In this document: piece after piece, positions 10,314 to 23,761 of the stretch
Layout of the letters: every line of letters begins with the position of its first letter
How positions within the stretch are numbered: position 1 is the first letter of the stretch
Source of the DNA: an uncultured virus (IMG/VR IMGVR_UViG_3300027751_000014)
Taxonomy: Duplodnaviria; Heunggongvirae; Uroviricota; Caudoviricetes
Strand: one strand, 5' to 3'
IMG/VR virus record: IMGVR_UViG_3300027751_000014
Length of the DNA: 64,000 nucleotides
The notes under the pieces: model-generated
Seen by the model: the letters and a program-made list of their open reading frames with translations, nothing else
Told to the model about the DNA's origin: nothing
The model's database searches: none
Translations under genes and position numbers: made by a program

Positions 10314-10387
10314 GGGGGTATAATTCAGTGGTAGAATAACTGGCTCTTAACCAGCTTACTGGAGTTCGATTCTCCGTACCCCTACCA
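10314..10387 (+). tRNA. tRNA-Lys(CTT)
   Basis: Cloverleaf, loop CTCTTAA, CCA. Confidence 0.85.
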
Positions 10388-10391
10388 ATTT

Positions 10392-10466
10392 GCCTTTGAA
10401 ACATTTAAGGATGATGCCCGGCCTTGTAAGTCGGAGAACGCGGTTCGATTCCGTGCTGAGGCTCCA
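10392..10466 (+). tRNA. tRNA-Thr(TGT)
   Basis: Loop CTTGTAA, GTTCGATT, CCA. Confidence 0.8.
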
Positions 10467-10555
10467 AATTCATCTACGAGGCTACGCTCGTCTTATCCCC
10501 AACGGATAAGTGTTATGGGACACCCTAACAAGAAAACATGCGTAGAACAAATTAT

Positions 10556-10633
10556 TGTCTCTGAGGCGCCAAGGTGGCAACCGCTTCGCTGTTAACGAAG
10601 AATAGACAGGTTCGATTCCTGTAGAGACAGCCA
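10556..10633 (+). tRNA. tRNA-Asn(GTT)
   Basis: Loop CTGTTAA, GCCA. Confidence 0.8.
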
Positions 10634-10639
10634 AACATT

Positions 10640-10714
10640 GGGGGATGGGCAGGGCACCCAGAGAATCCTTGCAAGATTCTAGCTTGATCGGTTCGAGTCC
10701 GATATTCTCCACCA
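10640..10714 (+). tRNA. tRNA-Ala(TGC)
   Basis: Loop CTTGCAA, G3-U70, ACCA. Confidence 0.8.
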
Positions 10715-10866
10715 AATGACGAGGTGAACTGCATTAGCCAGCAGGTGTACTCGTACAATGTAGGGAAGCGTAAGCGACTATGGCCTTCTAGTCCCTACCA
10801 CAAAAGTACGCAGAGCAGTAAGTGGCACTTACTGTGAGTATGATTGTGAGGGAGGCCACGATTTAT

Positions 10867-10954
10867 GAACTGGTATGCAAACTGGCGAAGCAGACAGACT
10901 TTCAATCTGTTACCCGAAAGGGCCCTGCGGGTTCGAACCCCGTCCAGTTCTCCA
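10867..10954 (+). tRNA. tRNA with TTC (Glu) anticodon and long variable arm
   Basis: ACAGA-CTTTCAA-TCTGT, extra arm CCCGAAAGGG, TCCA. Confidence 0.75.
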
Positions 10955-10961
10955 AATAAAT

Positions 10962-11036
10962 GCTCCCATCGAATAGTGGTTAGTTCGTGAGGTTCTCAAC
11001 CTCAAAACAGGGGTTCGATCCCCCTTGGGAGTACCA
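10962..11036 (+). tRNA. tRNA-Glu(CTC)
   Basis: Loop TTCTCAA, ACCA. Confidence 0.85.
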
Positions 11037-11127
11037 AGCAGTGTGGCGTAGGCCACGTCACATACACCGAGAGGGGTGCCTGCATAGGCCATGTAGGATC
11101 GGTTGAAAAAAGTCTCCACCAAACAAT

Positions 11128-11204
11128 TGCAGAGTGGGGGAGTGGTCGTCCCCGGTTGGCTCATAACCATCAGATCGTAGGTTCGAATCCTACCTCCGCT
11201 ACCA
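11128..11204 (+). tRNA. tRNA-Met(CAT), initiator-like
   Basis: Loop CTCATAA, 1:72 mismatch, ACCA. Confidence 0.75.
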
Positions 11205-11206
11205 AA

Positions 11207-11384
11207 TTTGTAAATAGTTAGACGCAGTTGATGAGTAGACGCAATCGGGCTTCTCCCGGTGTGGGGAAGAATCGCGCAGTAGGGGTCAACGAAGAATGGC
11301 ATTGAGAAAGATGAGACTCACGCTAGGTAATGCTAAGTAGATCGAATCAATCCACGTTAGTCCATGCTAACTATTTACAAACCA
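11207..11384 (+). ncRNA. Unknown stem-bounded RNA ending in CCA
   Basis: 15-bp terminal inverted repeat TTTGTAAATAGTTAG/CTAACTATTTACAAA then CCA. Confidence 0.55.
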
Positions 11385-11390
11385 AACAAT

Positions 11391-11468
11391 GGGCGGCTGA
11401 TGGGAATTGGCATACCTGACGGGCTTAGAACTCGTCGCTTCTCGGTTCGAGTCCGAGGTCGCCTACCA
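11391..11468 (+). tRNA. tRNA-Leu(TAG), short variable loop
   Basis: Loop CTTAGAA, ACCA. Confidence 0.8.
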
Positions 11469-11673
11469 ATCAATGGGGTGGATCTAGATAAGAGCGTTCT
11501 GCAGAACGTGATGCTATTTCCGAGATGCGATGCATACGCGCGGAATGGTCAAGGGTTCAAGTCCCTTGCCGCCCCTGCCACTTTTATCGTTGATTTCACC
11601 CTGAAGGTGAAAATAATCGAAGTAGCCCTACAAAGGTGAAAAGGTACTGGAGCACCAGCAACGACGATTTTAT

Positions 11674-11744
11674 GCTCCGGCTCTTGAAGAGGCGCGGCTT
11701 TTACAAGGCTGCTGAAGACAGTTTGATTCTGTCACGGAGTACCA
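11674..11744 (+). tRNA. tRNA-Val(TAC), degenerate
   Basis: Loop TTTACAA, weak stems, ACCA. Confidence 0.55.
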
Positions 11745-11826
11745 AATATGTCCCGGACTGTTGTAGCAAGTCGGATTTGAGGCCGAATGTGGGCGAGTTA
11801 GATTCTCGTTAGGGGCACCAATCAAT

Positions 11827-11902
11827 GCCACTGTAGGCCTCTGGGTAGGTCAACTCGTTGTCTGCGAGAACAAGGAGGGTTCGATTCCCTTCAGTGGCGC
11901 CA
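11827..11902 (+). tRNA. tRNA-Asp(GTC), atypical loop
   Basis: Loop TTGTCTG, GCCA. Confidence 0.75.
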
Positions 11903-12066
11903 ATTTCTAGAAACGTGAGAGGGTGGCTTACTGGTAGCTAACTCACGCAAATCAACACTCACAAGCATGATCATACACTTGTATACAAATGCAGATTGGA
12001 TGTTAGTATCGCCCCGTGGGGGTATTGAGCGAGCGGGAATCATCCGAAAAAACATTCCTAGCCAAT

Positions 12067-12140
12067 GGGGGTATAATTCAGTGGTAGAATAGCTGGCTTT
12101 TAACCAGTCCACCGGAGTTCGATTCTCCGTGCCCCTACCA
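12067..12140 (+). tRNA. tRNA-Lys(TTT)
   Basis: Loop CTTTTAA; paralog of 10314. Confidence 0.85.
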
Positions 12141-12280
12141 ATTTCAATGGCATCTCCCCCGGGGAGCAAACCTGGATGCAATGATCCGTGGGGAGATGTG
12201 ACCAAATTTCTCATGTTAGGTACCTAGTTGGATTGAACTTCCGGCGGGTTGATAATAGTAAAGCCGAGCTAGATTTTAAT

Positions 12281-12351
12281 GCTCCATGCCCTTGGGGGAA
12301 CGCAAGTCTCCAAAATTTGCAGGCGCGGTTCGAATCCGTGATGGAGTGCCA
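12281..12351 (+). tRNA. tRNA-Trp(CCA)
   Basis: Loop CTCCAAA, short D arm, GCCA. Confidence 0.75.
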
Positions 12352-12534
12352 ATTTTTGACCAAACGGCAATGCGGTCAAAGAAAAGAAGGGGAGTCTCAG
12401 AACAGAGGTGTTGCCGCACCACTAAGTATGAGGCAGATCATTCGTCTAGTCAGGCTCAGGACAACCGCGTTGAGCGGTGAACATAGGTTCAAATCCTATA
12501 TGGTCGTTCCCCAGATTTTCTTTTATAGTTTTAT

Positions 12535-12609
12535 GCGTCTAAGCTCGAGGTGAGTCGCCAGCCTTCCAAGCTGTTGCAGAGTGGATTTCGATTATCCCTA
12601 GACGCTCCA
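12535..12609 (+). tRNA. tRNA-Gly(TCC)
   Basis: Loop CTTCCAA, TCCA. Confidence 0.75.
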
Positions 12610-12613
12610 AATT

Positions 12614-12716
12614 CTTGCTGTTAATGTAATGGTAGCATAGCAACCTCCCCAGGTTGAGTCCTTACTGGGCTCTTTATGGCAAATGCATGAGTGGTTCGAT
12701 TCCACAGGCAAGTCCA
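12614..12716 (+). tRNA. tRNA-Gly-like with 8-nt CCCC anticodon loop and expanded variable region
   Basis: CAAC-CTCCCCAG-GTTG, U73 CCA. Confidence 0.55.
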
Positions 12717-12723
12717 ATTTTAT

Positions 12724-12795
12724 GTCTAGGTGGTCAGGGACTCCGTCGGTCTGCAAAACCGCACGGTACGGGTTCGACTCCCGTCCTAGACTCCA
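12724..12795 (+). tRNA. tRNA-Cys(GCA)
   Basis: Loop CTGCAAA, TCCA. Confidence 0.8.
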
Positions 12796-12804
12796 ATTTT
12801 CAAT

Positions 12805-12882
12805 GGTGTAGGTATCATAACTGGATAATGATACTCCCTGTGAAGGAGTCCTATGCGGGTTCGAATCCCGTTCTACACCCCA
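12805..12882 (+). tRNA. tRNA-His(GTG)
   Basis: G-1, loop CTGTGAA, CCCA. Confidence 0.85.
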
Positions 12883-12888
12883 AACAAT

Positions 12889-12966
12889 GGGCGGCTGATG
12901 GGAATTGGCATACCTAGTGGACTCAAAATTCACTGTCTCTCGGTTCGAGTCCGAGGTCGCCTACCA
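12889..12966 (+). tRNA. tRNA-Leu(CAA), short variable loop
   Basis: Loop CTCAAAA, ACCA. Confidence 0.8.
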
Positions 12967-12972
12967 ATTTAT

Positions 12973-13056
12973 GGTTCATTATACCGTTAAGGACACGGGG
13001 AAGTCTGTAAAACTTTCGCTTCGGCAGTCTAGGATCGTTACCTAGGTGAACCACCA
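12973..13056 (+). tRNA. tRNA-Tyr(GTA)
   Basis: Loop CTGTAAA, variable arm, T-loop ATCGTTA. Confidence 0.8.
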
Positions 13057-13061
13057 AATAA

Positions 13062-13135
13062 GCCTCTTTAGTTCAATGGGAGAACAGTGAGCTGATAACT
13101 CACAAACGGTGGATCGTAACCATCAAGAGGCACCA
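13062..13135 (+). tRNA. tRNA-Ile(GAT)
   Basis: Loop CTGATAA, T-loop ATCGTAA. Confidence 0.8.
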
Positions 13136-13229
13136 TTTTTGTACACAGCCTTTACTAGCTAGAAGGTAGTGGACTATAAGGTGTTCACCTAAAAACGGTT
13201 CAATTCCGTGTGTACAGATTTATTACAAT

Positions 13230-13304
13230 GCTCCTCTCTTCTAACTGGCAAGAAACTTGGCCGATTACCGAGTAATGGCGGTTCAACCCCGTCGGGGAGT
13301 ACCA
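13230..13304 (+). tRNA. tRNA with GAT anticodon, atypical (C33, U37)
   Basis: CTTGG-CCGATTA-CCGAG, ACCA. Confidence 0.6.
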
Positions 13305-13431
13305 AACAATGGCGCAGATGCTGTCCAATCGTAAAAGACAGGTTGAAGATGCATGGATCCGGAACACGCTAGTAACTTCAATGCTTTTATGCTAAGTGGG
13401 TTAAACTCCCATCCTGTGACCACCAATTTTG

Positions 13432-13590
13432 AGAGTCCTTACAGGGACGTACTGTCGGTGAACGATTCCGACTTTGACGGTAGAAACGGAGATAGGGGTG
13501 GTTCCCGTGTATCTGTTCTATAACGTGACATTAATACATCATTGACCAGATGTTGGCGGTGCAAACCCGTTGCGTCCCTGTAAGGACTTT
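13432..13590 (+). ncRNA. Unknown structured RNA with 18-bp closing stem
   Basis: AGAGTCCTTACAGGGACG/CGTCCCTGTAAGGACTTT enclosing several hairpins. Confidence 0.55.
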
Positions 13591-13675
13591 TAGATTTTCG
13601 ATATAGCCAACTGAAAGAATGTGGCTTGCCAGCGACCGCCCCAACACTGGAGTAACAACTAGGGGCCCAAACAAT

Positions 13676-13753
13676 GCTGCTCTGGCAGAGATGGTTCTAT
13701 TGCGCTAGTCTGAAGAACTAGACATCGGGGTTCGATTCCCTGGGGCAGCACCA
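13676..13753 (+). tRNA. tRNA-Phe(GAA)
   Basis: Loop CTGAAGA, ACCA. Confidence 0.85.
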
Positions 13754-13759
13754 ATTTAC

Positions 13760-13838
13760 GGCCTATGGGACTGCTTGGTGTGGTCACTTGCCTGTCACGC
13801 AAGATATCAGAGGGGTTCGATTCCCCTATAGGTCGCCA
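13760..13838 (+). tRNA. tRNA-Asp(GTC)
   Basis: Loop CTGTCAC, GCCA. Confidence 0.85.
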
Positions 13839-13844
13839 AACAAT

Positions 13845-13931
13845 GGTAGGTTGCCAGAGTGGTAATGGAGCAGTTTGCTAAACTGTCGCTGAGAAATCGG
13901 CACATAGGTTCGAATCCTATACCTACCGCCA
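13845..13931 (+). tRNA. tRNA-Ser(GCT)
   Basis: Loop TTGCTAA, long arm, GCCA. Confidence 0.9.
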
Positions 13932-13936
13932 AACAT

Positions 13937-14012
13937 GCCCCTATAACTCAGTGGACAGAGTGTCACGCTTCGAACGTGATGGCCGGAGGTTCGAATCCTT
14001 CTAGGGGCGCCA
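13937..14012 (+). tRNA. tRNA-Arg(TCG)
   Basis: Loop CTTCGAA, GCCA. Confidence 0.9.
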
Positions 14013-14018
14013 AATAAT

Positions 14019-14092
14019 TCTCCCTTCGTCTAGCGGAAGGATAGCAGACTCTGAATCTGTTGACCGAGGTTCGAATCCTTGAGGGAGAGCCA
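14019..14092 (+). tRNA. tRNA-Gln(CTG)
   Basis: Loop CTCTGAA, GCCA. Confidence 0.9.
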
Positions 14093-14099
14093 ATTTTAT

Positions 14100-14175
14100 C
14101 TCTGATTAGCTGAGGCTGGTTTAGCATCGCGTTTGGGGCGCGGGGACGTAGGTTCGAGTCCTACATCGGAGACCA
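14100..14175 (+). tRNA. tRNA-Pro(TGG)
   Basis: Loop TTTGGGG, ACCA. Confidence 0.85.
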
Positions 14176-14182
14176 ATTTTAT

Positions 14183-14255
14183 ACCCAGGCCAATGGATGG
14201 AGGTAACGCTACGAACGTTGTCCGCGTGGAGGTTCGAATCCTCTCCTGGGTGCCA
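14183..14255 (+). tRNA. tRNA-Arg(ACG)
   Basis: Loop CTACGAA, reduced D arm, GCCA. Confidence 0.8.
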
Positions 14256-14381
14256 AACAGTGTTTCGATGCGGCTGGCGTTTGAGTCAGTTGCATAGGAC
14301 ACCTAGTTGTAGAATGACTCAGCATTACTAATTAGTAAGCTTGAAAGGACCCTTTCACATTCTACAACGGATCTAATTAAT

Positions 14382-14474
14382 GCCCTCATAGTGTAAAGGT
14401 AGCACCCGAGTTTTATACACTCGTTTCCGGCAGATTACCGGGTAGTGTAGGTTCGAATCCTGCTGAGGGTACCA
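14382..14474 (+). tRNA. tRNA with TAT (Ile) anticodon and long variable arm
   Basis: CGAGT-TTTATAC-ACTCG, arm CCGG..CCGG, ACCA. Confidence 0.75.
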
Positions 14475-14567
14475 GTTTTGACCAAAGAGAGCGAATGGAA
14501 CGCCTGTGGCTATTAGCCGCGAACGCCGGTTCCCCTTTTCGAAGAGGGTGCGGTCAAATTTAACAAT

Positions 14568-14644
14568 GGTACGTAATGCAAACTGGCAGAGCAGCTTGTC
14601 TCATAAATAAGTGATTCTCGGTTCAAGTCCGAGGCGTACTACCA
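14568..14644 (+). tRNA. tRNA-Met/Ile2(CAT)
   Basis: Loop CTCATAA, ACCA. Confidence 0.8.
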
Positions 14645-14728
14645 AATAATCCCGCAGTGAAACTGTGTATGCGCACACAGTGATACTGAACAATGTAGGT
14701 TCAATTCCTACCTGCGGGGCCAAACAAT

Positions 14729-14803
14729 TCACGGATCTTCTAATGGCAGGAAACCTGGCTTTGAACTAGGATAACGTAGGTTCGACCCCTACTCCGTGAT
14801 CCA
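14729..14803 (+). tRNA. tRNA-Gln(TTG)
   Basis: Loop CTTTGAA, TCCA. Confidence 0.8.
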
Positions 14804-14811
14804 ATTTCTTT

Positions 14812-14888
14812 CTGTGCGTAGCTCAGTCTGGTAGAGCTCCTGGCCTGGAACCAGGAGGCCGCAGGTTCAAATCCTGCCGCGCAGACCA
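14812..14888 (+). tRNA. tRNA-Pro(TGG), C33/A37 variant
   Basis: CCTGG-CCTGGAA-CCAGG, C1-G72, ACCA. Confidence 0.8.
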
Positions 14889-14893
14889 AACAT

Positions 14894-14970
14894 GCCCATG
14901 TAGCAGAGTTGGTTCATGCATCTCCTTGGTAAGGAGAAGCACGTCGGTTCGAATCCGTCCATGGGCTCCA
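14894..14970 (+). tRNA. tRNA-Thr(GGT)
   Basis: Loop TTGGTAA, TCCA. Confidence 0.85.
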
Positions 14971-14974
14971 AAAT

Positions 14975-15063
14975 GGAAGATGTCCGGCTGGTCGAGGACG
15001 CAGTCTTGAAAACTGTTGGGCTATTCATATGCTTCGGGGGTTCGAGTCCCTCATCTTCCGCCA
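14975..15063 (+). tRNA. tRNA-Ser(TGA)
   Basis: Loop CTTGAAA, long arm, GCCA. Confidence 0.85.
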
Positions 15064-15066
15064 AAA

Positions 15067-15186
15067 TCAGGATAACAACAACGCACCTAGTGTGGGGCTT
15101 AGTGGTTCAAATCCACGCGCATCGGAAGGTGCGTGTCAACATTACTCAGTTGTGGGTGTTGAGGTTCGATTCCTCGTCCTGACCCA
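15067..15186 (+). ncRNA. tRNA-like RNA with two T-arms
   Basis: Acceptor TCAGGAT/GTCCTGA+CCCA; GTGGTTCAAATCCAC and GAGGTTCGATTCCTC. Confidence 0.5.
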
Positions 15187-15192
15187 ATTTAT

Positions 15193-15267
15193 GCTCCGTT
15201 CGTCTATCGGTCAGGACACCGGGTTTTCATCCCGGCAAGAGGGGTTCGACTCCCCTACGGAGTACCA
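15193..15267 (+). tRNA. tRNA-Glu(TTC)
   Basis: Loop TTTTCAT, ACCA. Confidence 0.9.
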
Positions 15268-15453
15268 AATCAATTCTCACAGTATGGCCGGTTTTCGCGA
15301 ACCGTGCTGCATAGTGGAGCAATGTAGGTTCGACCCCTACCTGTGAGAGCCCAACGCGGCCCCGTGAGGTCACTAGTCAGGTTGACAATCCTGGCAGGTC
15401 GGGGTTCGAGCTGAGGCAAAAGATCTCAATATGCCAAAGCACCAATTTTCAAT

Positions 15454-15525
15454 GCCCTCGCCGATGGAACGGAACAGCGGTTTCTACCCGCAGTATTGTA
15501 GGTTCGAATCCTACCGAGGGTGCCA
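15454..15525 (+). tRNA. tRNA-Arg(TCT)
   Basis: Loop TTTCTAC, GCCA. Confidence 0.8.
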
Positions 15526-15562
15526 ATTTATTCTTGCATTTTACGTGCAAGGAGCGTATAAT

Positions 15563-15985
15563 ATGACGATGCACATAGGTATGACAGGAACACGTAGCGG
15601 TATGACGCCCGAGCAAGCGCATACCTTCTACAATCTTTTAGAAAAATACAAAGGTGAGTGGTTCCACCACGGTGATTGCCAAGGTGCAGACGCTGAGGGA
15701 CACGACTTTGCGACAGAGCTTGGATACAAAACCCATGTTCACCCACCCATCAAAGATGAGGTACGTGCCTTCAAGCAAGGCACAACGCAAAGCGAGAATA
15801 AAGGCTATTTTGCGAGGAATCGTGACATAGTAGATGAGTCCGAAATCTTATTTGGCACGCCTGTGACCATGTTTGAGACACAAGGCGGTACTTGGTACAC
15901 AATAAATTACGCTAAGAAGAAAAACAAACCAATAATTATTGTGTTCCCCGACGGAACAACAGAAGAATTCAATTTGCCGAAGTAG
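15563..15985 (+). CDS. SLOG-superfamily-like nucleotide-binding protein
   Basis: IGMTGTR...HHGDCQGAD...ARNRDIVD...GGTWYTI; start corrected to lie after the tRNA. Confidence 0.65.
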   Translation: MTMHIGMTGTRSGMTPEQAHTFYNLLEKYKGEWFHHGDCQGADAEGHDFATELGYKTHVHPPIKDEVRAFKQGTTQSENKGYFARNRDIVDESEILFGTPVTMFETQGGTWYTINYAKKKNKPIIIVFPDGTTEEFNLPK

Positions 15986-16051
15986 CTTAGACGGTAGAGC
16001 AGCGCACTCGTAATGCGAAGGTCCGAGGTTCGATTCCTCGCTGCGGCACCA
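15976..16051 (+). tRNA. tRNA-Thr(CGT)
   Basis: Loop CTCGTAA, ACCA. Confidence 0.9.
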
Positions 16052-16104
16052 ATTTCAAGTAATCATAGATAAATATACTGATTACAACTTACGGAGGATT
16101 TGCT

Positions 16105-16251
16105 ATGGACGAGAAGACCATACACCTCTTGCTAAAGACTGCAAAAGGTAGAGAATTTTATTTCCGAGAGCTTGCGAAAGAAAAACGACAAGCTGAAAGC
16201 CTAAAGCAAATCAAGAAAAATTGGAAATGGAGTAACTTCTTTCCGAAATAA
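16105..16251 (+). CDS. 48-aa basic hypothetical protein
   Basis: GATAAATA 16068, SD GGAGG, MDEKTIHLLL. Confidence 0.55.
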   Translation: MDEKTIHLLLKTAKGREFYFRELAKEKRQAESLKQIKKNWKWSNFFPK

Positions 16252-16257
16252 CCCTTT

Positions 16258-16329
16258 GCCCTCACCGATGGAGCGGACACGAGTTTCCTAAACTTGTTTT
16301 TGTAGGTTCGAATCCTACTGAGGGCACCA
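16258..16329 (+). tRNA. tRNA-Arg(CCT)
   Basis: Loop TTCCTAA, ACCA. Confidence 0.8.
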
Positions 16330-16332
16330 CCC

Positions 16333-16384
16333 AATCTGCTTTCAAGCGCAGATTAACCGACTTAATCTGCTTTCAAGCGCAGAT
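16333..16384 (+). repeat. 21-bp direct repeat (two hairpins)
   Basis: AATCTGCTTTCAAGCGCAGAT x2. Confidence 0.85.
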
Positions 16385-16392
16385 AGAACCTT

Positions 16393-16602
16393 TATACATA
16401 CAAGTGATCGCTCTACGGAGAGGAAGCTCAGGACAGGCGCTTAGGCGTGGGAGGTATACGTTATACCGCATAAACCACGTATATACGCTTCAGCGTATAG
16501 CCTGCAACGCAAACAGCCCGAGGGGAACCGAAGCCTCTATGACGGCGGGTCGCGGCCAATAGATGAATGTCACATAAACAGAATCCTGGCTATGGATGTA
16601 TA
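16393..16602 (+). ncRNA. rnpB: RNase P RNA, minimal (~210 nt)
   Basis: GAGGAAGCTCAGGAC (CR-I), AGATGAATGTC (CR-IV), ACAGAATCCTGGCTA (CR-V); P4 CAGGA/TCCTG; P1 TATACAT/ATGTATA. Confidence 0.8.
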
Positions 16603-16607
16603 ATACT

Positions 16608-16695
16608 GCGAATATGATGGAATTGGTAGACTTGCAAGAATGAGAGTCTTGTGCTGTATCACAGCGTGTGGGTTCGAGTCCCACTATTCGCACCA
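16608..16695 (+). tRNA. tRNA-Leu(GAG)
   Basis: Loop ATGAGAG, long arm, ACCA. Confidence 0.85.
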
Positions 16696-16714
16696 AATTT
16701 AGATAAATACGTTT

Positions 16715-17074
16715 ATGCGTATTGATGAAGTAATTGTCCCGTTCCCAACAAAGAAAAGTAATATCACTGCTCGCGGTGATATACGAAAATCTGATGTGGT
16801 TGGTAAAACAGCAACAGGCCAATTAGTGTATAGTGATGAGTTGACTGGTCAACCATATATACGGAATAAGAAGGACGTACCATTTTTTGTAAATGACGCA
16901 TTTGATGTTCCGGATAACTATGACGACAACTACGATTTCCCAAAACAATGGGTAATTGTAGACGATAAGATGCGCGCCTTCGGTAAATTATATTCTGATA
17001 AAAAAGAAGCCGAACTAGATGCGCGTAGATATCGACAATGGCATCACAAAGAAGTCAACGTACAAGCAGTATAA
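16715..17074 (+). CDS. Hypothetical protein
   Basis: GATAAATA at 16702 just upstream; 119-aa ORF. Confidence 0.7.
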   Translation: MRIDEVIVPFPTKKSNITARGDIRKSDVVGKTATGQLVYSDELTGQPYIRNKKDVPFFVNDAFDVPDNYDDNYDFPKQWVIVDDKMRAFGKLYSDKKEAELDARRYRQWHHKEVNVQAV

Positions 17075-17084
17075 ACCAAACAAT

Positions 17085-17162
17085 GGGCGTCTGATGGGAA
17101 TTGGCATACCTGATGGACTTAAAATTCATCGTTTCTCGGTTCGAGTCCGAGGTCGCCTACCA
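17085..17162 (+). tRNA. tRNA-Leu(TAA), short variable loop
   Basis: Loop CTTAAAA, ACCA. Confidence 0.8.
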
Positions 17163-17164
17163 AA

Positions 17165-17827
17165 TTAAAGGTTAGTGAGATCCGCTAACGGGTCAATGAC
17201 AACGAGCTTCTGGTCAGAAGGTCGATACATGATATTACCTGGATGCATATCGTAGCTGCAAACACCAGTAGCACGGTTTTCTGCTGTTCGTAATGTTGCA
17301 ATGAATTTTCTACTACCTTTAGATTTTTTAAGCCATCGAGAAATGGCCACGTCTTCTGCAAGATCATCCTCGTCGACTATACCTTCTTTAACAAGACGGT
17401 GAAAAATACCCTGCCCCTGGAACCAATCTTCGTGTACATATAGATATGCAAGACCTATGAGGTCAGTTGTGTTCATTATTGCGTGGCGATTGAATGGCGC
17501 AAGTTTTTCGACAAGCGCAAGGAAGAATTTTTGTCCCTTACTACCTGTGTATTGTTGCATCCATTTAATATCTGGAAGGTGTGGGTTATTAGTAACACTT
17601 AACGCCCACTCTGCAAATCGCATCCAACAAACATCTTCCTTAGTAGAGAGTTTAATTACACGGTTGTAGCCTGGTCTTATAAAAACAGCACCAAAGCTGC
17701 CTGAACCTTTTTTCTGAAAACCGTTTGCACGTAACCAAGCCATTAACTGTTTTGGCGAAGTCCACTTTGTACGTAAAAGTGTGCGCTCGTCAAATATAGA
17801 GGCTTCAATTAGGTGTCGTATTAGCAT
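17165..17827 (-). CDS. Protein kinase, T7 gp0.7-like kinase domain
   Basis: GSGSFGAVF, RVIKL..ED, DMHPGNIM, VIDP; start MLIRH after GGTAAATA. Confidence 0.75.
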   Translation of the reverse strand: MLIRHLIEASIFDERTLLRTKWTSPKQLMAWLRANGFQKKGSGSFGAVFIRPGYNRVIKLSTKEDVCWMRFAEWALSVTNNPHLPDIKWMQQYTGSKGQKFFLALVEKLAPFNRHAIMNTTDLIGLAYLYVHEDWFQGQGIFHRLVKEGIVDEDDLAEDVAISRWLKKSKGSRKFIATLRTAENRATGVCSYDMHPGNIMYRPSDQKLVVIDPLADLTNL

Positions 17828-17846
17828 ACGTGTATTTACCATATAT

Positions 17847-17934
17847 GGAGAGTAAACTAAGCTGGGCTTAGGGCTGCCTCGAAAACAGTACGTGTCCTGA
17901 CGGGCATGCCGTTCGATTCGACTGCTCTCCGCCA
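17847..17934 (+). tRNA. tRNA-Ser(CGA)
   Basis: Loop CTCGAAA, long arm, GCCA. Confidence 0.75.
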
Positions 17935-17940
17935 AACAAT

Positions 17941-18029
17941 AGAAGATGATCCTTGATGGTGATGGGTCACGCCTGGAAAGCGTTGAGACTAGGTAACTGG
18001 TTGCGGTTCGACTCCGCCGTCTTCTGCCA
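17941..18029 (+). tRNA. tRNA-Ser(GGA)
   Basis: Loop CTGGAAA, long arm, GCCA. Confidence 0.75.
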
Positions 18030-18090
18030 ATTTTAGAGCTTGACTTTTATCCCAAGCCCTGTTATAATATGTTTATATTAGGAGAAGAAC

Positions 18091-18378
18091 ATGCCTTGGA
18101 ATTATCGTCTTTGCAAAGAAAAGGTAAGAGATGATGTTGGTGGTGAGCCAGTGTATTATTACTCTGTGCGCGAAGCATTTTTCAACCAAGATGGCAGTAT
18201 TTGGGCTATAGGTGGCGAAGCTAGCCTCGGATGCGATAAATATGCTACTGACACTGAGGAATGGGTGAAATCCGACCTTCAGCAAGATTTGGAACATCAG
18301 CGCCAAGCGTTTAGCCGCGCTGTCATTGATCTAGACACTATTGTTTATGCCGCCCAAGAGCAAGTTGTTGATTCATAA
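18091..18378 (+). CDS. Hypothetical protein
   Basis: SD AGGAG, MPWNYRL. Confidence 0.7.
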   Translation: MPWNYRLCKEKVRDDVGGEPVYYYSVREAFFNQDGSIWAIGGEASLGCDKYATDTEEWVKSDLQQDLEHQRQAFSRAVIDLDTIVYAAQEQVVDS

Positions 18379-18391
18379 GAGAATTTAGATG

Positions 18392-18470
18392 TTGACATCT
18401 TAGCAGAATGGTAGTATAATACTTGTATTGTTTGAGCAGATACTGAACACTAGGTCTGCAACGCTCTTTT
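18392..18470 (+). promoter_or_regulatory. Sigma70 promoter with boxA-like element
   Basis: TTGACA-17-TATAAT; CGCTCTTTT at 18462. Confidence 0.65.
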
Positions 18471-18561
18471 ATAATTTGGAAACGATTTATTTACATCTTG
18501 CACTACCATTAACAGATCACAGTATATTAATCTGCAATATTAACAACTGGAGGATTTGAAA

Positions 18562-18897
18562 ATGGGAATATTCTTAGAAGATTTTGGGAGTGTGGAAGAT
18601 GTATGCGGCAATTTCCAAATTGACGCAGTGAACGGTGAAATCTTATTCGCTTGGTATGGCGGCGGTGATTACGACGGATCAGCATTCGTGTTGTTTTCGC
18701 GTGATGGCGAGTTATACGAGGTGAACGGAAGTCATTGTTCGTGTTATGGCTTAGAGGGACAGTGGGATCCTGAGAAGACTTCTTTCGAGGAGTTGATGCA
18801 CAGAATTACTAAGGGAACTTTAGGTCAAGATACTTATTACAGCGGTGCTGTCTTCGGAGAGCAACTAGTAGAAGTATTGAACAAGTGGAAGGGGTAA
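18562..18897 (+). CDS. Conserved phage hypothetical protein
   Basis: SD GGAGG; YEVNGSHCSCYGLEGQW motif. Confidence 0.75.
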   Translation: MGIFLEDFGSVEDVCGNFQIDAVNGEILFAWYGGGDYDGSAFVLFSRDGELYEVNGSHCSCYGLEGQWDPEKTSFEELMHRITKGTLGQDTYYSGAVFGEQLVEVLNKWKG

Positions 18898-18978
18898 CAC
18901 CCTTCCCGTTAGCGGCAACCCCGTGTAACGGCGGGGGCGCACTTAGGCGTGCTTGGGAGGGGGCCTATTTGCAAATTT

Positions 18979-19055
18979 CGGAGTGTAGCTCAGCCTGGTA
19001 GAGCATCGCGTTTGGGACGCGAGGGTCCGCGGTTCGAATCCGTGTACTCCGACCA
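18979..19055 (+). tRNA. tRNA-Pro(TGG)
   Basis: Canonical, loop TTTGGGA. Confidence 0.95.
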
Positions 19056-19338
19056 ATTTATTTTGTAGGCACTCGCCTGACCGTTCCGATAGTAAGAGCA
19101 AAGGTCATAAATATTGCCGCCTACACTTTTTTATTTCTTGATGCGGGTTACCTATGGTTAGGCACGGCTGCGCGTTAGCGGTCGGTGACGGTTCGATCCC
19201 GAGGTCCTGTGATACATTTGCGAGTGGATATGGGCAAGGTCAAGAAATACTTTTAACAAGGAATTATACGATGTACCGCCCGAGGGCTAAATGGTTACCT
19301 AGCGCCAAAAAAGCTAGCCAACTGTATAATTTCTTTAT

Positions 19339-19413
19339 TCCCACATAGCTCAGAGGTAGAGCGAGTGACTGTTAATCACTTGGTCGGTGGTTCGATCCCA
19401 TCTGTGGGAGCCA
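19339..19413 (+). tRNA. tRNA-Asn(GTT)
   Basis: Canonical, loop CTGTTAA. Confidence 0.95.
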
Positions 19414-19420
19414 GTTTTAC

Positions 19421-19497
19421 GGGCGTGTAGCTCAATTGGTCAGAGCAGCGGGCTCATAATCCGTTGGTTGAAGGTTCAAGTCCTTCGGCGCCCACCA
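19421..19497 (+). tRNA. tRNA-Ile2/Met(CAT)
   Basis: Canonical, loop CTCATAA. Confidence 0.9.
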
Positions 19498-19516
19498 ATT
19501 TTTAGGAGAATGTCCA

Positions 19517-19690
19517 GTGGACAATAAAGAAAAATTTATTGCAACATTAAAAGGTTTGTGTGATCGCTGCAAAAAGAATCCCGCAAGCGGGCCCGAGCAT
19601 ACGTGTCCTTATGTAGCCGAGCTTTATGATGAACAAGAATATTGTAATTGCTGCGATGATTGCGATCACGAATGTTGTATGGATATATAA
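19517..19690 (+). CDS. 57-aa Cys-rich protein
   Basis: SD AGGAG, GTG start, CDRC..HTCPY..CNCCDDC..CC. Confidence 0.6.
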   Translation: MDNKEKFIATLKGLCDRCKKNPASGPEHTCPYVAELYDEQEYCNCCDDCDHECCMDI

Positions 19691-19692
19691 AT

Positions 19693-19780
19693 GCCTAGGT
19701 GGTGGAATTAGGTATACACAACAGACTTAAAATCTGTCGGTCGAAAGGCCATGCGGGTTCGATTCCCGCCCGAGGCACCA
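19693..19780 (+). tRNA. tRNA-Leu(TAA)
   Basis: Canonical long-arm Leu. Confidence 0.95.
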
Positions 19781-19825
19781 AATAAAGGTTGACAGTCCTG
19801 ATAAATACTGTTATAATGAATTATC

Positions 19826-19902
19826 GCCGATGTAGCTCCAATTGGTAGAGCGTCTGTTTTGTAATCAGAATGTTGGGAGTTCGAGTCTCTCTATCGGCAC
19901 CA
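19826..19902 (+). tRNA. tRNA-Thr(TGT)
   Basis: Loop TTTGTAA; own promoter 19789-19817. Confidence 0.9.
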
Positions 19903-19978
19903 AATTATATGTTGAGCGGTTGGGTGAAAATCCAAAGGAATGCAGACAGTAGGCATGAGCAACCTACCAACATATTAT

Positions 19979-20063
19979 GCCCGGGTGGTGGAATTGGTAG
20001 ACACGCTAGATTTAGGTTCTAGTATCGAAAGATGTGGAGGTTCAAGTCCTCTCTCGGGTACCA
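19979..20063 (+). tRNA. tRNA-Leu(TAG)
   Basis: Canonical long-arm Leu. Confidence 0.95.
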
Positions 20064-20071
20064 AATTATAG

Positions 20072-20148
20072 GGGACCTTAGCTCAGAGGCCTAGAGCATT
20101 GCCTTGACATGGCAAGGGTCACTGGTTCAAATCCAGTAGGTCCCACCA
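20072..20148 (+). tRNA. tRNA-Val(GAC)
   Basis: Loop TTGACAT. Confidence 0.95.
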
Positions 20149-20165
20149 ACACAGGAAACACAAAT

Positions 20166-20360
<195 letters not shown>

Positions 20361-20365
20361 ATTTT

Positions 20366-20440
20366 GCGGGTATAGCTCAGTGGTAGAGCATCTCGTTGCC
20401 AACGAGAATGTCGTCGGTTCAAGCCCGATTACCCGCTCCA
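20366..20440 (+). tRNA. tRNA-Gly(GCC)
   Basis: Canonical. Confidence 0.95.
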
Positions 20441-20458
20441 ATTTTACAAGGAATTGAC

Positions 20459-20713
20459 ATGAGAGATTACACACCAAAAATTGCAAAGAAAGACTTGAAG
20501 CACGGCGTGTATTACGCTGGTGATTGTCGCAATACAGAGATTGCTAGATGGAACGCAGAGGATGAAAACTTTTATCATTGGCGTTACAAGTTTGGTGACT
20601 GTTTTATCGAAACCATCAAACATCCTGAAGATGATGATAGGTATGATGTGTTTATAGTTGAGCGAGAGCTTGACCCAACAGAAGTTGATACGGAAATTCC
20701 TTTGAAGGTTTAG
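20459..20713 (+). CDS. Hypothetical protein
   Basis: SD AAGGA, MRDYTPK. Confidence 0.7.
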   Translation: MRDYTPKIAKKDLKHGVYYAGDCRNTEIARWNAEDENFYHWRYKFGDCFIETIKHPEDDDRYDVFIVERELDPTEVDTEIPLKV

Positions 20714-20812
20714 TTTGTGTTAGTTTAAAAGGTAAAAACAGTCACGGCGGGTTACGATTCGCAGTGGACATTGCAGATTCCAAACTGCACACGAACTATT
20801 TTTGAGGTTTGT

Positions 20813-21052
20813 ATGCGTAAATTGATGAAAAAACGTAGGCGTAAGAAGCTAGGTGCGTATAGAATTAGTTATATGCCTGCCTCAGACGAAACCGTAAAAG
20901 ACGAGTATTTTACGGGCAGGTACGATGAACTCGATAAGTTTTTCTACGATCGGATAATTTGTGGGCATTGTAGAGAAGATGTGCGCAAACATAATGTCTG
21001 CCCGTTAGATACCGGGTGTGCAGCGGAGTGGCACATTGAAAAAATAAAATAA
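20813..21052 (+). CDS. Hypothetical protein
   Basis: SD GAGG, basic N-term, Cys cluster. Confidence 0.55.
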   Translation: MRKLMKKRRRKKLGAYRISYMPASDETVKDEYFTGRYDELDKFFYDRIICGHCREDVRKHNVCPLDTGCAAEWHIEKIK

Positions 21053-21140
21053 GTATCTCCTAGTTTTACATAATTAGAACCGTGTTTTATTGGTGTAAAA
21101 TGATAAATACTAGGACACGATACATTATATGGAGCATATC

Positions 21141-21728
21141 ATGAATAAAACAATGGTGACGATTATATTGTTGCTGTTCAGTTTTTCAGTTATTGCGGGG
21201 GAAATGACCCTGACCTGGACAAACGCAACAAGTATGACTGACGATAGTCTCATTCCTACAGATGTGTCTGATCCTAATTCTTTGGCTAAGACTGAGATTG
21301 AATATGGTACATGTTCTGTAGTAAATGTTCCAGAAGAACCGTACACAACGGTTGTGGTGGATACAACTACCCCTGGTGCTCAAGAAAGTTTTAAAATTGA
21401 TACTATTGAGCCCGGTGTTTGGTGTGTGTGGGCAAAACACCAATTGAAGAATGGTGTATATTCTGCTTACTCTGCCCCAGTATCAAAGACTATATTGGAT
21501 ACGCCTGTTGTACCTGACCCACCCACAGATTTTAATACGATAGAGACAATAGCCTATACGCTAGTGAAGCAAATTGATAGATTCATATTGCTCCCGGTAG
21601 GAACAGTCGCAGTAGGCACTAAATGTGATCCTACACAATATGTAAATGGATATTACGTTGTACCTATTACATCAGTAACATTCAGTGGAACAGTACGACC
21701 AGTTGTTGTGGTTGCTAAATGTGGGTAG
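21141..21728 (+). CDS. Secreted fibronectin-III-like protein
   Basis: Signal peptide, LTWTN..YSAYS; GATAAATA 21102. Confidence 0.6.
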   Translation: MNKTMVTIILLLFSFSVIAGEMTLTWTNATSMTDDSLIPTDVSDPNSLAKTEIEYGTCSVVNVPEEPYTTVVVDTTTPGAQESFKIDTIEPGVWCVWAKHQLKNGVYSAYSAPVSKTILDTPVVPDPPTDFNTIETIAYTLVKQIDRFILLPVGTVAVGTKCDPTQYVNGYYVVPITSVTFSGTVRPVVVVAKCG

Positions 21729-22162
21729 TAATAGTATTAGTATTTTTGGCAATTGTTTATTGGCTGGCAACACAGAAGAAGAAAAACGAACCAACTGAAA
21801 TAGATAAACCAATGAGCGTGGGAAACGTCACGCTGGAGAAAATAAATATGAAAAGTGTTAAAATTGAATGGGACTTACCAACTACTCGTGCTAGTGGATT
21901 CCCGTTAGCAGCCTCAGATATAGCCGAAGTCGAAGTATCAATGTCAGCAGATGCTGGTCAGAATTGGGTAGTGATTGGATCAGTTCTTCCAGACGGAGTC
22001 CAGGAATTCCTACAGACCGAACTTGAAATTGGTGACTGGCATTTCCGTTTAGTAGTTGTTGATACCAACGGATTGCGTAGTGCGAACCACGATGAAGTAG
22101 CTACGGTTCCAGATGAGACAGCGCCTAGCGCACTTGCTAACGTAATCGTTACTATTATATAA
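21719..22162 (+). CDS. Membrane-anchored fibronectin-III-like protein
   Basis: TM segment; IEWDLP...WHFRLVVVDTNGLRS. Confidence 0.6.
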   Translation: MWVVIVLVFLAIVYWLATQKKKNEPTEIDKPMSVGNVTLEKINMKSVKIEWDLPTTRASGFPLAASDIAEVEVSMSADAGQNWVVIGSVLPDGVQEFLQTELEIGDWHFRLVVVDTNGLRSANHDEVATVPDETAPSALANVIVTII

Positions 22163-22169
22163 GAACAAC

Positions 22170-22246
22170 GGGTCCTTAGCTCAGACTGGTAGAGCGTCTG
22201 GTTTACATCCAGAATGTCGGCGGTTCGATCCCGTCAGGACCCACCA
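22170..22246 (+). tRNA. tRNA-Val(TAC)
   Basis: Canonical. Confidence 0.95.
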
Positions 22247-22321
22247 ACACAGGGAGACAAACAGTGAGGACTGAGATACCTTAACCACTTTCTTATCAAT
22301 GACACGATAAGGAGGTGATTT

Positions 22322-22477
22322 ATGAATAGATCACATTATATGACTCAAGACCAAAAGGCTAAATGGGCCTTGGCCGAGAGTCAGGCAGGCCACAAGTTGC
22401 CGCGCACACATGAGAATTGCATTAGGATTCTCGGTGTTGCTCGGCCTGGCAAAACTGCCAAAGACCGGCAACGGTAG
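22322..22477 (+). CDS. 51-aa basic peptide with sequestered SD
   Basis: TAAGGAGGTGAT SD inside a 12-bp hairpin; MNRSHYMTQDQK. Confidence 0.55.
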   Translation: MNRSHYMTQDQKAKWALAESQAGHKLPRTHENCIRILGVARPGKTAKDRQR

Positions 22478-22515
22478 GGTATGGGGCGAAAGCCCCTATC
22501 CTCAAAACAATCAAT

Positions 22516-22592
22516 TGCGGGGTGGAGCAGTCTGGCAGCTCGGGTGGCTCATAACCATCAGGTCGGAGGTTCGAATCCTTCTCCCGCTACCA
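22516..22592 (+). tRNA. tRNA-fMet(CAT)
   Basis: TGCGGGG.., 1:72 mismatch, loop CTCATAA. Confidence 0.9.
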
Positions 22593-22684
22593 TTTTGTGT
22601 TCGTAAAGCGTAAAGTATCCGGGCCCGCCCAGCGCACCCTAAGCGTATTGGTAAATACGTGGACTTTACGGCGAACACTTTTTT

Positions 22685-22882
22685 ATGAGAGATAGCATGA
22701 CCACAATAATTAGCCCGTGTGTAAACGTCTGTGCAATGGATGAATATGAAATGTATTGCATTGGGTGTATGCGCACCTCAAAGGAGATAAGCGGCTGGTA
22801 TGGATACAGTGATGATGAACGGCGCACAAAGATGGAGCAAATCAAAACCCGCTCCTACGATGATGCAGAAGACAATCTGTAA
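22685..22882 (+). CDS. DUF1289-like Cys protein
   Basis: SPCVNVC...CIGCMRT..EI..W. Confidence 0.75.
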   Translation: MRDSMTTIISPCVNVCAMDEYEMYCIGCMRTSKEISGWYGYSDDERRTKMEQIKTRSYDDAEDNL

Positions 22883-23690
22883 GGACGTTGAATATACTGG
22901 CATAGGGCTACATAGCGGCATTAAAAATAAAATTATGCTGTCTCCAGCAGAACCGCATACAGGTATTGTATTCCGCTGTCCTACGCGCAACATTGAAATT
23001 CCAGCAACATGGAATAACGTAACAAACACAACACTGAATACCAAAATTGGTATTGGTGCTGCAGAGTTTATGCTTATTGAACATTTGATGAGCGCATTAC
23101 ACGGCTTAGAGATTGATAATGTAATTATTACGCTATGTGGCAACGAAGTCCCTATAGCAGACGGAAGCAGTTTGGAATGGGTAAAATTAATTGACCGCGC
23201 AGGTGTACAAATTCAATCCACACCGCGAAGGTATATACGAATCCTAAAAACAGTTTCCGTTACCGATGGCGACCGTTACGCCAAATTGCTACCCTCAGAC
23301 GTGAAGCGTTTTAGGATTAGCACAGAATTTGACGGCATTGGTTTACAAAAACTAAATATTATACTTAGTGAATCCTATTACCGAACCAACGTGGCATTTT
23401 GTAGGACGTTTGGTTATGCAGATGAGATTAACGATTTGGACGAAGCTGGTTTTGCGAAAGGCGCAGGCTTAGATAACGTGCTTGTAATGCACAGGAACGG
23501 AGCCCCCATTAACAAGCTACGTGCGACAGATGAGATCATCCAACATAAGTTGTTGGATGCGATTGGCGATTTATATTGCGCAGGCTCACAAATAATTGGC
23601 GAGTATGACGCACATAAACCAGGCCATAAACTAAACTGGTTACTGTTAGAGAAATTATTTTCCGACGATAGCAACTGGACATATATTTGA
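22860..23690 (+). CDS. lpxC: UDP-3-O-acyl-N-acetylglucosamine deacetylase
   Basis: QKTI..GIGLHSG, IEHLMSAL, EVPIADGSS, CRTFG, HKLLDAIGDL, KPGH. Confidence 0.9.
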   Translation: MMQKTICKDVEYTGIGLHSGIKNKIMLSPAEPHTGIVFRCPTRNIEIPATWNNVTNTTLNTKIGIGAAEFMLIEHLMSALHGLEIDNVIITLCGNEVPIADGSSLEWVKLIDRAGVQIQSTPRRYIRILKTVSVTDGDRYAKLLPSDVKRFRISTEFDGIGLQKLNIILSESYYRTNVAFCRTFGYADEINDLDEAGFAKGAGLDNVLVMHRNGAPINKLRATDEIIQHKLLDAIGDLYCAGSQIIGEYDAHKPGHKLNWLLLEKLFSDDSNWTYI

Positions 23691-23761
23691 CCCATCGTCT
23701 AGCGGTAGGACACGGGATTTTGATTCCCGGTACCGAGGTTCGAATCCTTGTGGGTCAGCCA
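23688..23761 (+). tRNA. tRNA-Gln(TTG)
   Basis: Canonical. Confidence 0.95.

Follow-up and report, generated by a model that had tools for sequence, protein, structure and literature searches.

A stretch of 64,000 nucleotides from an uncultured tailed phage (hereafter the window) contains a real homologue of bacterial RNase P RNA, reduced to 212 nt. It belongs to a family that is widespread in phages, has been missed by standard annotation and is apparently undescribed. The RNA has the parts of a type A catalytic domain (P1-P6, P15-P17 and the GGU of L15), and P8, P10-P14, CR-II/III, P18 and P19 are missing; the specificity domain (S-domain) is reduced, not absent. From its sequence and surroundings we consider it probable that the RNA, together with the RnpA protein of the host, matures the phage's own CCA-encoding tRNAs.

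The gene content of the window marks it as part of a large tailed marine phage: predicted proteins match tail-fibre, rIIA/rIIB, ATP-dependent ligase, endolysin and virion proteins (PHROG), and 16 of 35 window ORFs have no PHROG family. The sequencing runs that contain window DNA are marine metagenomes, with no RNA dataset among the runs listed. The window also codes for a GOLLD RNA and a permuted tmRNA. The presence of the tmRNA, the endolysin and an LpxC gene indicates that the host is probably a bacterium, likely a Gram-negative one. Two further genes may be mentioned. On the opposite strand within the tRNA array, an ORF (17165-17935, -) resembles a T7-type protein kinase (phrog_15752, E 8.7e-14), an enzyme that regulates RNase III and RNase E; and a protein encoded at 53384-53746 (+) contains a stretch like the C-terminal part of ribosomal L7/L12 (E 5.5e-9).

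A preliminary description of this DNA had reported CR-I, CR-IV and CR-V motifs, a P4 pairing and closure by P1 within 210 nt. Motifs and P4 were borne out at the places described, the latter with all eight pairs. P1 also closes the RNA; it is, however, one pair longer than described, which makes the gene 212 nt from P1 end to P1 end (Table 1). P18 is taken to be absent because CR-IV directly adjoins P15. Helices were named after the alignment of a homologue (L010) to the Rfam model RF00010, in which the P10-P14 and P18 columns are dropped, and after PMC4919922. An independent contig (run X4) spans 15900-17162 with zero letter differences, so the gene is not an assembly artefact; comparison of reads gave one variant letter in the RNA (16551, in a single low-depth contig), too little for covariation. 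The 20-nt repeat just upstream matches twice, against 0.02 matches expected, and occurs nowhere else in the window; the segment 16334-16384 has a fold z of -5.0. A promoter scan returned 3 sites against 3.7 expected, none of them upstream of the RNase P RNA gene, and no terminator was found 3' of it.

Table 1. The miniature RNase P RNA, its parts and its surroundings. Positions are those of the window unless a locus is named.
Feature	Position	Strand	Basis or remark
Gene for the miniature RNase P RNA (212 nt, both strands of P1 included)	16392-16603	+	Sequence; held-out model R1
CR-I GAGGAAGCUCAGGA	16420-16433	+	Sequence
CR-IV AGAUGAAUG	16561-16569	+	Sequence
CR-V ACAGAAUCCUGGCUA	16578-16592	+	Sequence
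P1	16392-16402 with 16593-16603	+	10/11 paired; in MFE fold; family P1 76% of cells paired
P2	16404-16409 with 16569-16573	+	5 bp, one base bulged; family P2 91-94% paired
P3, minimal: 3 bp and cUACGg tetraloop	16411-16420	+	Sequence, MFE fold; family P3 93.5% paired
P4	16425-16433 with 16584-16591	+	8/8 pairs, U16428 bulged; active-site helix
P5	16434-16438 with 16500-16504	+	MFE fold; family 100% paired, both-side changes at 3/4 pairs
P6 pseudoknot	16439-16445 with 16528-16534	+	6/7 pairs; family 80%, both-side changes at 6/6 pairs
Remnant specificity domain, 34 nt	16446-16479	+	Fold z -2.67 for 16446-16500
P7	16446-16450 with 16475-16479	+	Family P7 93% paired
2x7 internal loop	GA 16451-16452 / GCAUAAA 16468-16474	+	Sequence
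Stub hairpin, 6 bp	16453-16467	+	Sequence
Extra 7-bp hairpin between P7 and P5 3' strands	16482-16499	+	Fold z -4.35; insertion relative to R1
J5/15 CAA	16505-16507	+	Sequence; linker 3 nt across family too
P15, 3 bp	16508-16510 with 16552-16554	+	Family P15 85% paired
P16	16516-16518 with 16544-16546	+	Family P16 90% paired
P17	16521-16524 with 16535-16538	+	Family P17 93% paired
L15 GGU	16548-16550	+	Invariant in alignment A2
CR-IV, P2 3' strand, CR-V with P4 3' strand	16561-16592	+	Sequence, R1 alignment; no P19
20-nt self-complementary repeat, two exact copies	16334-16353, 16365-16384	+	Just upstream of RNA gene
tRNA array, 45 ARAGORN tRNAs	10314-23761	all +	Likely substrates
tRNA-Leu(GAG)	16608-16695	+	ARAGORN; begins 4 nt past P1
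LpxC, lipid A pathway deacetylase	22800-23690	+	Pfam E 1.8e-82; end of tRNA array
GOLLD RNA	24239-24698	+	164 bits; past tRNA array
Permuted tmRNA	31497-31800	+	105 bits; past tRNA array
G031 RnpA	L038:1501-1794 (G031:C1:35853-36140)		About 19 kb from miniature RNA L037

The Rfam RNase P models gave no match to the window copy, neither at gathering nor at E<=10. Among 11 homologue loci, nine match below gathering (E 8e-23 to 4e-5): seven of the 11 match RF00010 (bacterial class A), two RF00373 (archaeal) and two neither. The plain minimum free energy (MFE) fold of the whole RNA is no better than those of shuffled sequences (z -0.63), a nested fold being unable to show P4 or P6. A held-out model was also used. 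This model, R1, comprises 36 viral sequences, excludes the window and its closest look-alikes (L031, L087 and L168) and was built without P4 and P6 as pairs. Applied to the 64 kb, it returned a sole match, 16386-16602, at 115.2 bits (E 2.9e-30). R1 recovers 71 of the 77 loci given to it and none of six P4-failing controls, and it leaves a full-length canonical rnpB (L172) unmatched. RNase P RNAs of the short cellular kind score 34-77 bits, so at low scores the model is not specific for the phage type. The proposal that the RNA be checked against covariance models has a divided outcome: R1 detects the window copy and Rfam detects homologues below gathering, whereas the window copy itself escapes Rfam. 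A blastn search of 50,697 phage records with the window RNA produced five short chance matches only.

In order to find relatives, IMG/VR was searched with a pattern in which GAGGAA, the bulged U plus one C, CR-IV and ACAGAA were fixed and the rest of P4 was left unspecified; helices other than P4 were not under selection. At three spacings the pattern occurs at 37, 54 and 38 viral loci (129 in total). P4 is paired at 6-7 of 7 positions in 36, 42 and 33 of these, respectively (111 of 129), and 92 of the sequences are distinct. Locus L020 and 17 other viral pattern matches, in which P4 fails, were dropped as chance. The 92 sequences and the window together have 48 different P4 5' strands.

Thirty-six of the 92, the shorter forms, were aligned by sequence only (alignment A2), with the window, L031, L087, L168, L110 and L119 left out. 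A structure of 54 pairs is paired in 89.0% of cells, against 62.1% after shuffling (none of 500 shuffles as high) and 32-42% in slid controls, and both-side changes are seen at 47 of the 54 pairs. These controls are lenient, because the sequences had been selected for P4 and the alignment was already visible when the pairs were chosen. In the same 36 rows P7 is paired in 93% and P4 in 99.7%. The helices of the catalytic domain covary in the family. Invariant in A2 are the GGU of L15, the AA of J5/15 and the bulged U of P4; a GGU-type L15 is found in 92 of 93 sequences by a loose pattern. P15 has 3 bp and P2 has 6 bp in the family, P2 being one pair shorter in the window copy. At the place of P18, 26 of 92 measured members have a stretch of 28-47 nt. 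Several loci depart from the common plan: L110 resembles a type A RNA with other deletions, L144 is a viral RNase P-like RNA of other layout, and so is L011, in which T-loop motifs are retained and L15 is of the hairpin type.

The family extends to cultured phages. Searches by blastn with three relatives led to DLP6 (Stenotrophomonas), Zooman and Big4 (Microbacterium) and to four phage genomes of 595-735 kb; R1 scores these seven copies at 91-121 bits. In DLP6, Zooman and Big4 the RNA is unannotated and occupies an unannotated gap of the tRNA array. One complete phage of 488 kb (G016) has two divergent copies about 300 nt apart (L015:2489-2677 and 2981-3231).

A search of 185,579 prokaryote genomes with the middle-spacing pattern yielded 40 matches, of which 29 were dropped as chance (P4 fails) and 11 have P4. 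Three of the 11 belong to the phage type, each lying in the midst of tRNA genes, and eight are short cellular forms (L039, L045, L047, L048, L051, L065, L072 and L077) from bins assigned to Elusimicrobiota, Dojkabacteria, Micrarchaeota, Gammaproteobacteria and Bacteroidia. The eight retain S-domain T-loop motifs of the ACAGAA/GUGAAA type and apparently dropped other S-domain helices, which would seem to be a different route to smallness. In Achromobacter anxifer LMG 26857 a miniature RNA (L067:2954-3178) lies on a 487-kb contig with an array of 27 tRNAs. This genome, from a cultured organism, contains a normal rnpB as well (202 bits against 83), and the miniature form can therefore coexist with a full host enzyme. 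Neither Gp23 nor terminase has a match in the A. anxifer genome, for which reason the RNA may be carried there by a plasmid or some other element; the copy had no match in a plasmid collection.

These data bear on the idea that the RNA is what is left of a host rnpB that was captured and is now decaying, or that the contig is cellular and mislabelled. The lack of an Rfam match would fit, as would the existence of short cellular RNase P RNAs (the eight loci above) and of CPR forms without P12 (PMC8172020). Against the idea stand the single architecture with compensatory changes across 92 distinct viral sequences, the ACAGAA/GUGAAA-type motifs kept by the short cellular forms, the tail-fibre, rIIA/rIIB, endolysin and phage ligase genes of the window, and the presence of the RNA in near-complete records of 306-488 kb and in cultured phages. 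Covariation, near-complete records and cultured carriers largely refute both versions, which we regard as extremely improbable.

According to the preliminary description the RNA has almost no room for an S-domain. This is true of P8, P10-P14 and CR-II/III; it overlooks a conserved remnant of 34 nt, which consists of P7, a 2x7 internal loop and a stub hairpin. The motif fits 77 of the 93 sequences, with hairpins of 8-80 nt. The fit required both loop adenosines, and their conservation was taken from A2 instead, where the 5' loop A is present in 35 of 36 sequences and the last 3' loop A in all 36. The conservation of this loop, next to a hairpin that varies freely, points to a genuine contact or a role in the structure; and since the remnant is conserved, the enzyme is not necessarily blind to the tRNA elbow. 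In the 7-nt strand of the loop, position 3 is U in 50 of 60 cases (A in the window) and position 6 a pyrimidine in 52 of 60; the strand ends in A and fits the T-loop consensus poorly. The P5 strands are 63 nt apart in the window, against a median of 48.5 nt among 82 parsed members; the window has an additional hairpin where its closest relatives (L031, L087 and L168) have a plain linker of 7 nt. CR-II- and CR-III-like motifs occur together in just one of the 82 (L011). In L168 and L154 the stub hairpin has inserts of 68 nt with sequences like a tRNA T-arm.

As described at the outset, the RNA lies inside the tRNA array, on the strand of the tRNAs. CCA is encoded by 44 of the 45 window tRNAs, which suits pairing with L15. 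The T-loop is canonical (TTCNA) in 43 of the 44 CCA-encoding tRNAs, and a loose criterion finds GG in the region of the D-loop of all 44. Leu and Ser tRNAs normally have short D-stems, and a count of 30 out of 44 as canonical throughout was set aside for this reason; outside the Leu/Ser class about five window tRNAs have poor D-arms. Odd D-arms are seen at 10392, 10640 and 12724 and in the region 15454-15525. Six tRNA-like elements with T-arm, CCA and odd D-arms were left uncalled by ARAGORN (ends at 12609, 13304, 14255, 14722, 15525 and 16329). GOLLD and the tmRNA also contain T-arm plus CCA elements and could be substrates. Odd substrates thus exist in the window but are a minority. Separately, the array includes three near-identical tRNA-Leu genes of 78 nt without the long variable arm (11391-11468, 12889-12966 and 17085-17162; anticodons TAG, CAA and TAA).

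Linkage to tRNA genes holds for much of the family. A tRNA is found within 1.5 kb of 59 of the 93 members, and all 334 such tRNAs are on the strand of the RNA; in 24 of the 93 a tRNA starts within 24 nt of CR-V. The other 34 members are tRNA-free within 1.5 kb. At the level of whole records, 23 of 30 carry tRNAs (41-68 in four near-complete ones of 306-488 kb), and the seven without are all incomplete, G027 (185 kb) and G031 (171 kb) among them.

The preliminary description went on to propose that the RNA serves tRNAs and tRNA-like RNAs with aberrant elbows. In a broader form, the RNA would be a specialist for these and for tmRNA or GOLLD-linked RNAs that host RNase P mishandles. The near absence of CR-II together with CR-III points in this direction, as do the handful of poor D-stems outside Leu/Ser and the six elements that ARAGORN passes over; in addition, E. 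coli RNA deprived of its S-domain selects the right cleavage site when the loop of the substrate is altered (PMC5839562). The ordinary T-loops and D-regions of the large majority of window tRNAs speak against specialization, and so does the conserved stub loop; in a published model a comparable type T stub continues to read the T-loop (PMC13462272). Aberrant substrates are available, but they are not what the array mainly consists of, and we judge a specialist improbable.

RnpA, the protein partner, was found in one of 80 records searched (out of 92), in none of 12 near-complete records and in none of 87 window ORFs; use of the host RnpA is assumed on these grounds. The virus record nearest to the window (G001; 77 kb, 21% complete, without this stretch) likewise gave no RnpA match. 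RnpA proteins are interchangeable among bacteria (PMC4919922). The one record with RnpA is G031, which has a T4-type Gp23 capsid match and codes for an RnpA of 97 aa that scores above the Pfam cut-off and has the RNR motif. As far as sequence goes, RNA and RnpA of G031 possibly form an all-phage holoenzyme; among viral contigs this RnpA has only itself as relative. HARP/PIN_5 was found in none of five near-complete carriers, and RnpA, for which the relatives were searched, is the only RNase P protein seen in any carrier.

The scarcity of RnpA (missing from 79 of the 80 records) might also be expected of a decoy: a mimic with little catalytic power that would sequester the RnpA of the host and thereby slow the maturation of host tRNAs. 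The RnpA-binding core, which in the holoenzyme structure is the P2-P4 region, is fully kept, and such a role has been raised for the camelpox RNA (PMC3001073). Protein capture leaves unexplained, however, the conservation of L15 GGU, P6/P16/P17 and J5/15, which serve binding of substrate rather than protein; moreover, the phage's own 45 tRNAs need 5' trimming and one phage brings its own RnpA. We give the decoy a slim chance, smaller than that of the specialist.

Maturation of the phage's own tRNAs is favoured because the catalytic-domain elements are all present and covary, because one phage record (G031) codes for both RNA and RnpA, and because every one of the nearby tRNAs shares the strand of the RNA; it is favoured over a protein sponge because the substrate-binding parts are invariant in A2. 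The reading is weakened by the missing Rfam match, the unremarkable fold energy and the many members without a nearby tRNA, as well as by the scarcity of RnpA in the records and by the inactivity in vitro of the camelpox RNA (PMC3001073). The RNA would be co-transcribed with the array, its 3' end being freed by the 5' cut of tRNA-Leu(GAG), and would bind host RnpA or, rarely, a phage-encoded one. A pre-tRNA would be held by pairing of L15 GGU with the encoded 3' RCCA and by RnpA on the leader, and cleaved at the metal site of P4; the P7 stub would steady the fold and may touch the T-arm. The likely job is extra 5'-maturation capacity for dense phage tRNA, tmRNA and tRNA-like transcripts, a need that would arise should the RNase P RNA of the host become limiting or disappear in the course of infection.

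We know of no bacterial protein like those that hold the P7 stem of archaeal type T RNA. By analogy, the activity of the phage RNA could be low, because type T needs these proteins (PMC13462272). Published work bears on how much activity a catalytic domain can have: the active site lies within it, and without the S-domain it can still cleave, though more slowly and with weaker affinity (PMC4919922), and E. coli RNA deprived of the S-domain suffers a loss of about 120-fold, with P6 mattering and P18 not (PMC5839562). The latter result matches what the phage family kept (P6) and lost (P18).

The variable hairpins of 8-80 nt on the stub, the T-arm-like inserts of L154 and L168, the two divergent copies in one complete phage and the carriers without nearby tRNAs could be read differently, namely as signs of a nuclease redirected to host mRNA, to wrong sites of host pre-tRNAs or to riboswitch-like structures, or of a scaffold. 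A guide would need some conserved length or sequence, which the variable parts lack, and the tie to tRNA arrays is strong (59 of the 93 members have a tRNA no more than 1.5 kb away); we think this about as unlikely as a decoy, if not slightly more so. A more far-reaching form of the maturation reading is that the miniature RNA replaces the host RNase P RNA in infection, capturing RnpA and shifting 5' processing to phage CCA-encoding tRNAs and tRNA-like RNAs by way of a new recognition module, P7 plus the 2x7 loop, in place of interdigitated T-loops. We hold this to be rather unlikely, though likelier than any of the rivals above. If true, viruses would encode an RNase P that acts in trans and follows substrate rules of its own, and nature would offer a minimal bacterial enzyme that works with just one small protein.

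RNase P RNA is usually viewed as a cellular housekeeping ribozyme and has even served to mark cellular genomes as complete (PMC8172020). Full-text searches of the available papers turned up no phage RNase P RNA, although supplements, tables, databases or subscription papers could list some. Term look-up gave no such RNA in PMC11143913, PMC7191817, PMC12974513 and PMC10941002, nor in the DLP6 paper (PMC5349666) and the theta ribozyme preprint. The main text of the huge-phage paper (PMC7162821), as excerpted, leaves RNase P unmentioned, and the abstract and passages of a preprint on noncoding space (10.64898/2026.10.21.760802) contain no such RNA. The only viral RNase P-like RNA that these searches brought up is that of camelpox (PMC3001073); a second paper matched concerns a pestivirus RNase. 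A conserved phage family of about 200 nt would add a new structural type and would show that large phages carry their own catalyst of tRNA 5' maturation. Many natural, covarying enzymes without elbow-reading T-loops would make the purpose of the S-domain in vivo and the minimum size of the bacterial enzyme testable, and the cultured carriers DLP6, Zooman and Big4, the last two with a laboratory host that is harmless, make expression and deletion tests feasible. There is also a warning: sub-threshold RNase P matches in metagenome bins may stem from phage or mobile DNA (L041, L053 and L067). The present analysis adds the held-out model test, the cultured carriers and a phage with its own RnpA, together with the findings that the stub is conserved and that substrate elbows are mostly ordinary.

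Among known systems the closest is bacterial type A (rnpB, RF00010), with which the phage RNA shares P1-P7, P15-P17, the P6 pseudoknot, CR-I/IV/V, the bulged U in P4, the CAA at J5/15 and the GGU of L15. It differs in length (212 nt against 405 nt for the canonical Achromobacter anxifer gene), in having no P8, P10-P14, CR-II/III, P18 or P19, in its 3-bp P15, in the linker or hairpin between the P7 and P5 3' strands, and in being phage-encoded and below Rfam gathering. Judged by sequence, it is a homologue of RNase P RNA that falls outside type A as defined, since it has no full S-domain and no P18. Type B RNA (RF00011) is characterized by P5.1 and P10.1 and by the lack of P16 and P17. The phage RNA, in contrast, has P6, P16 and P17 and no P5.1 on the 5' side; type B is also without P6 (PMC5839562).

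The resemblance to archaeal type T lies in a type A-like catalytic domain with the S-domain largely gone, a short P15, no P18, and a P7 stem with loop and one further hairpin (PMC13462272). In type T, P10 is stunted or missing, P15 is one pair shorter than in type A, P2 has 3 bp and the P5/P15 linker 2 nt (PMC3579882). The phage RNA agrees in the largely absent S-domain and the P15 of 3 bp, and disagrees in P2 (5-6 bp, not 3) and J5/15 (3 nt, not 2). Type T is, moreover, a gene of Thermoproteaceae that works with the archaeal proteins Pop5, Rpp30, Rpp29 and L7Ae, whereas the phage RNA comes from a phage of bacteria and would work with RnpA. A published model gives the type T remnant one stem, in which a lone T-loop, placed between P7 and P9, still contacts the elbow of the tRNA (PMC13462272); the phage stub seems to have no canonical T-loop. 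The comparison with S-domain-less type T forms, drawn in the preliminary description, is an analogy, with two type T features failing in an RNA from a bacterial phage; the resemblance is most likely convergent.

Reduced cellular RNase P RNAs share with the phage RNA their shortness and sub-gathering Rfam scores. The short forms of Elusimicrobiota and other cellular lineages, however, keep CR-II/III and drop other helices, and many CPR forms are without the UGG motif of L15 (PMC8172020), which the phage family keeps. The RNase P-like RNA of camelpox and other orthopoxviruses shows no activity in vitro (PMC3001073) and has some structural likeness only, in contrast to the full conserved and covarying core of the phage family. 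The theta ribozymes of gut phages (10.1101/2023.06.13.544163) have an unrelated, HDV-like fold and self-cleave in cis at the 3' trailer; like the RNA described here, they are phage ribozymes linked to tRNAs, with a proposed role in processing tRNA ends.
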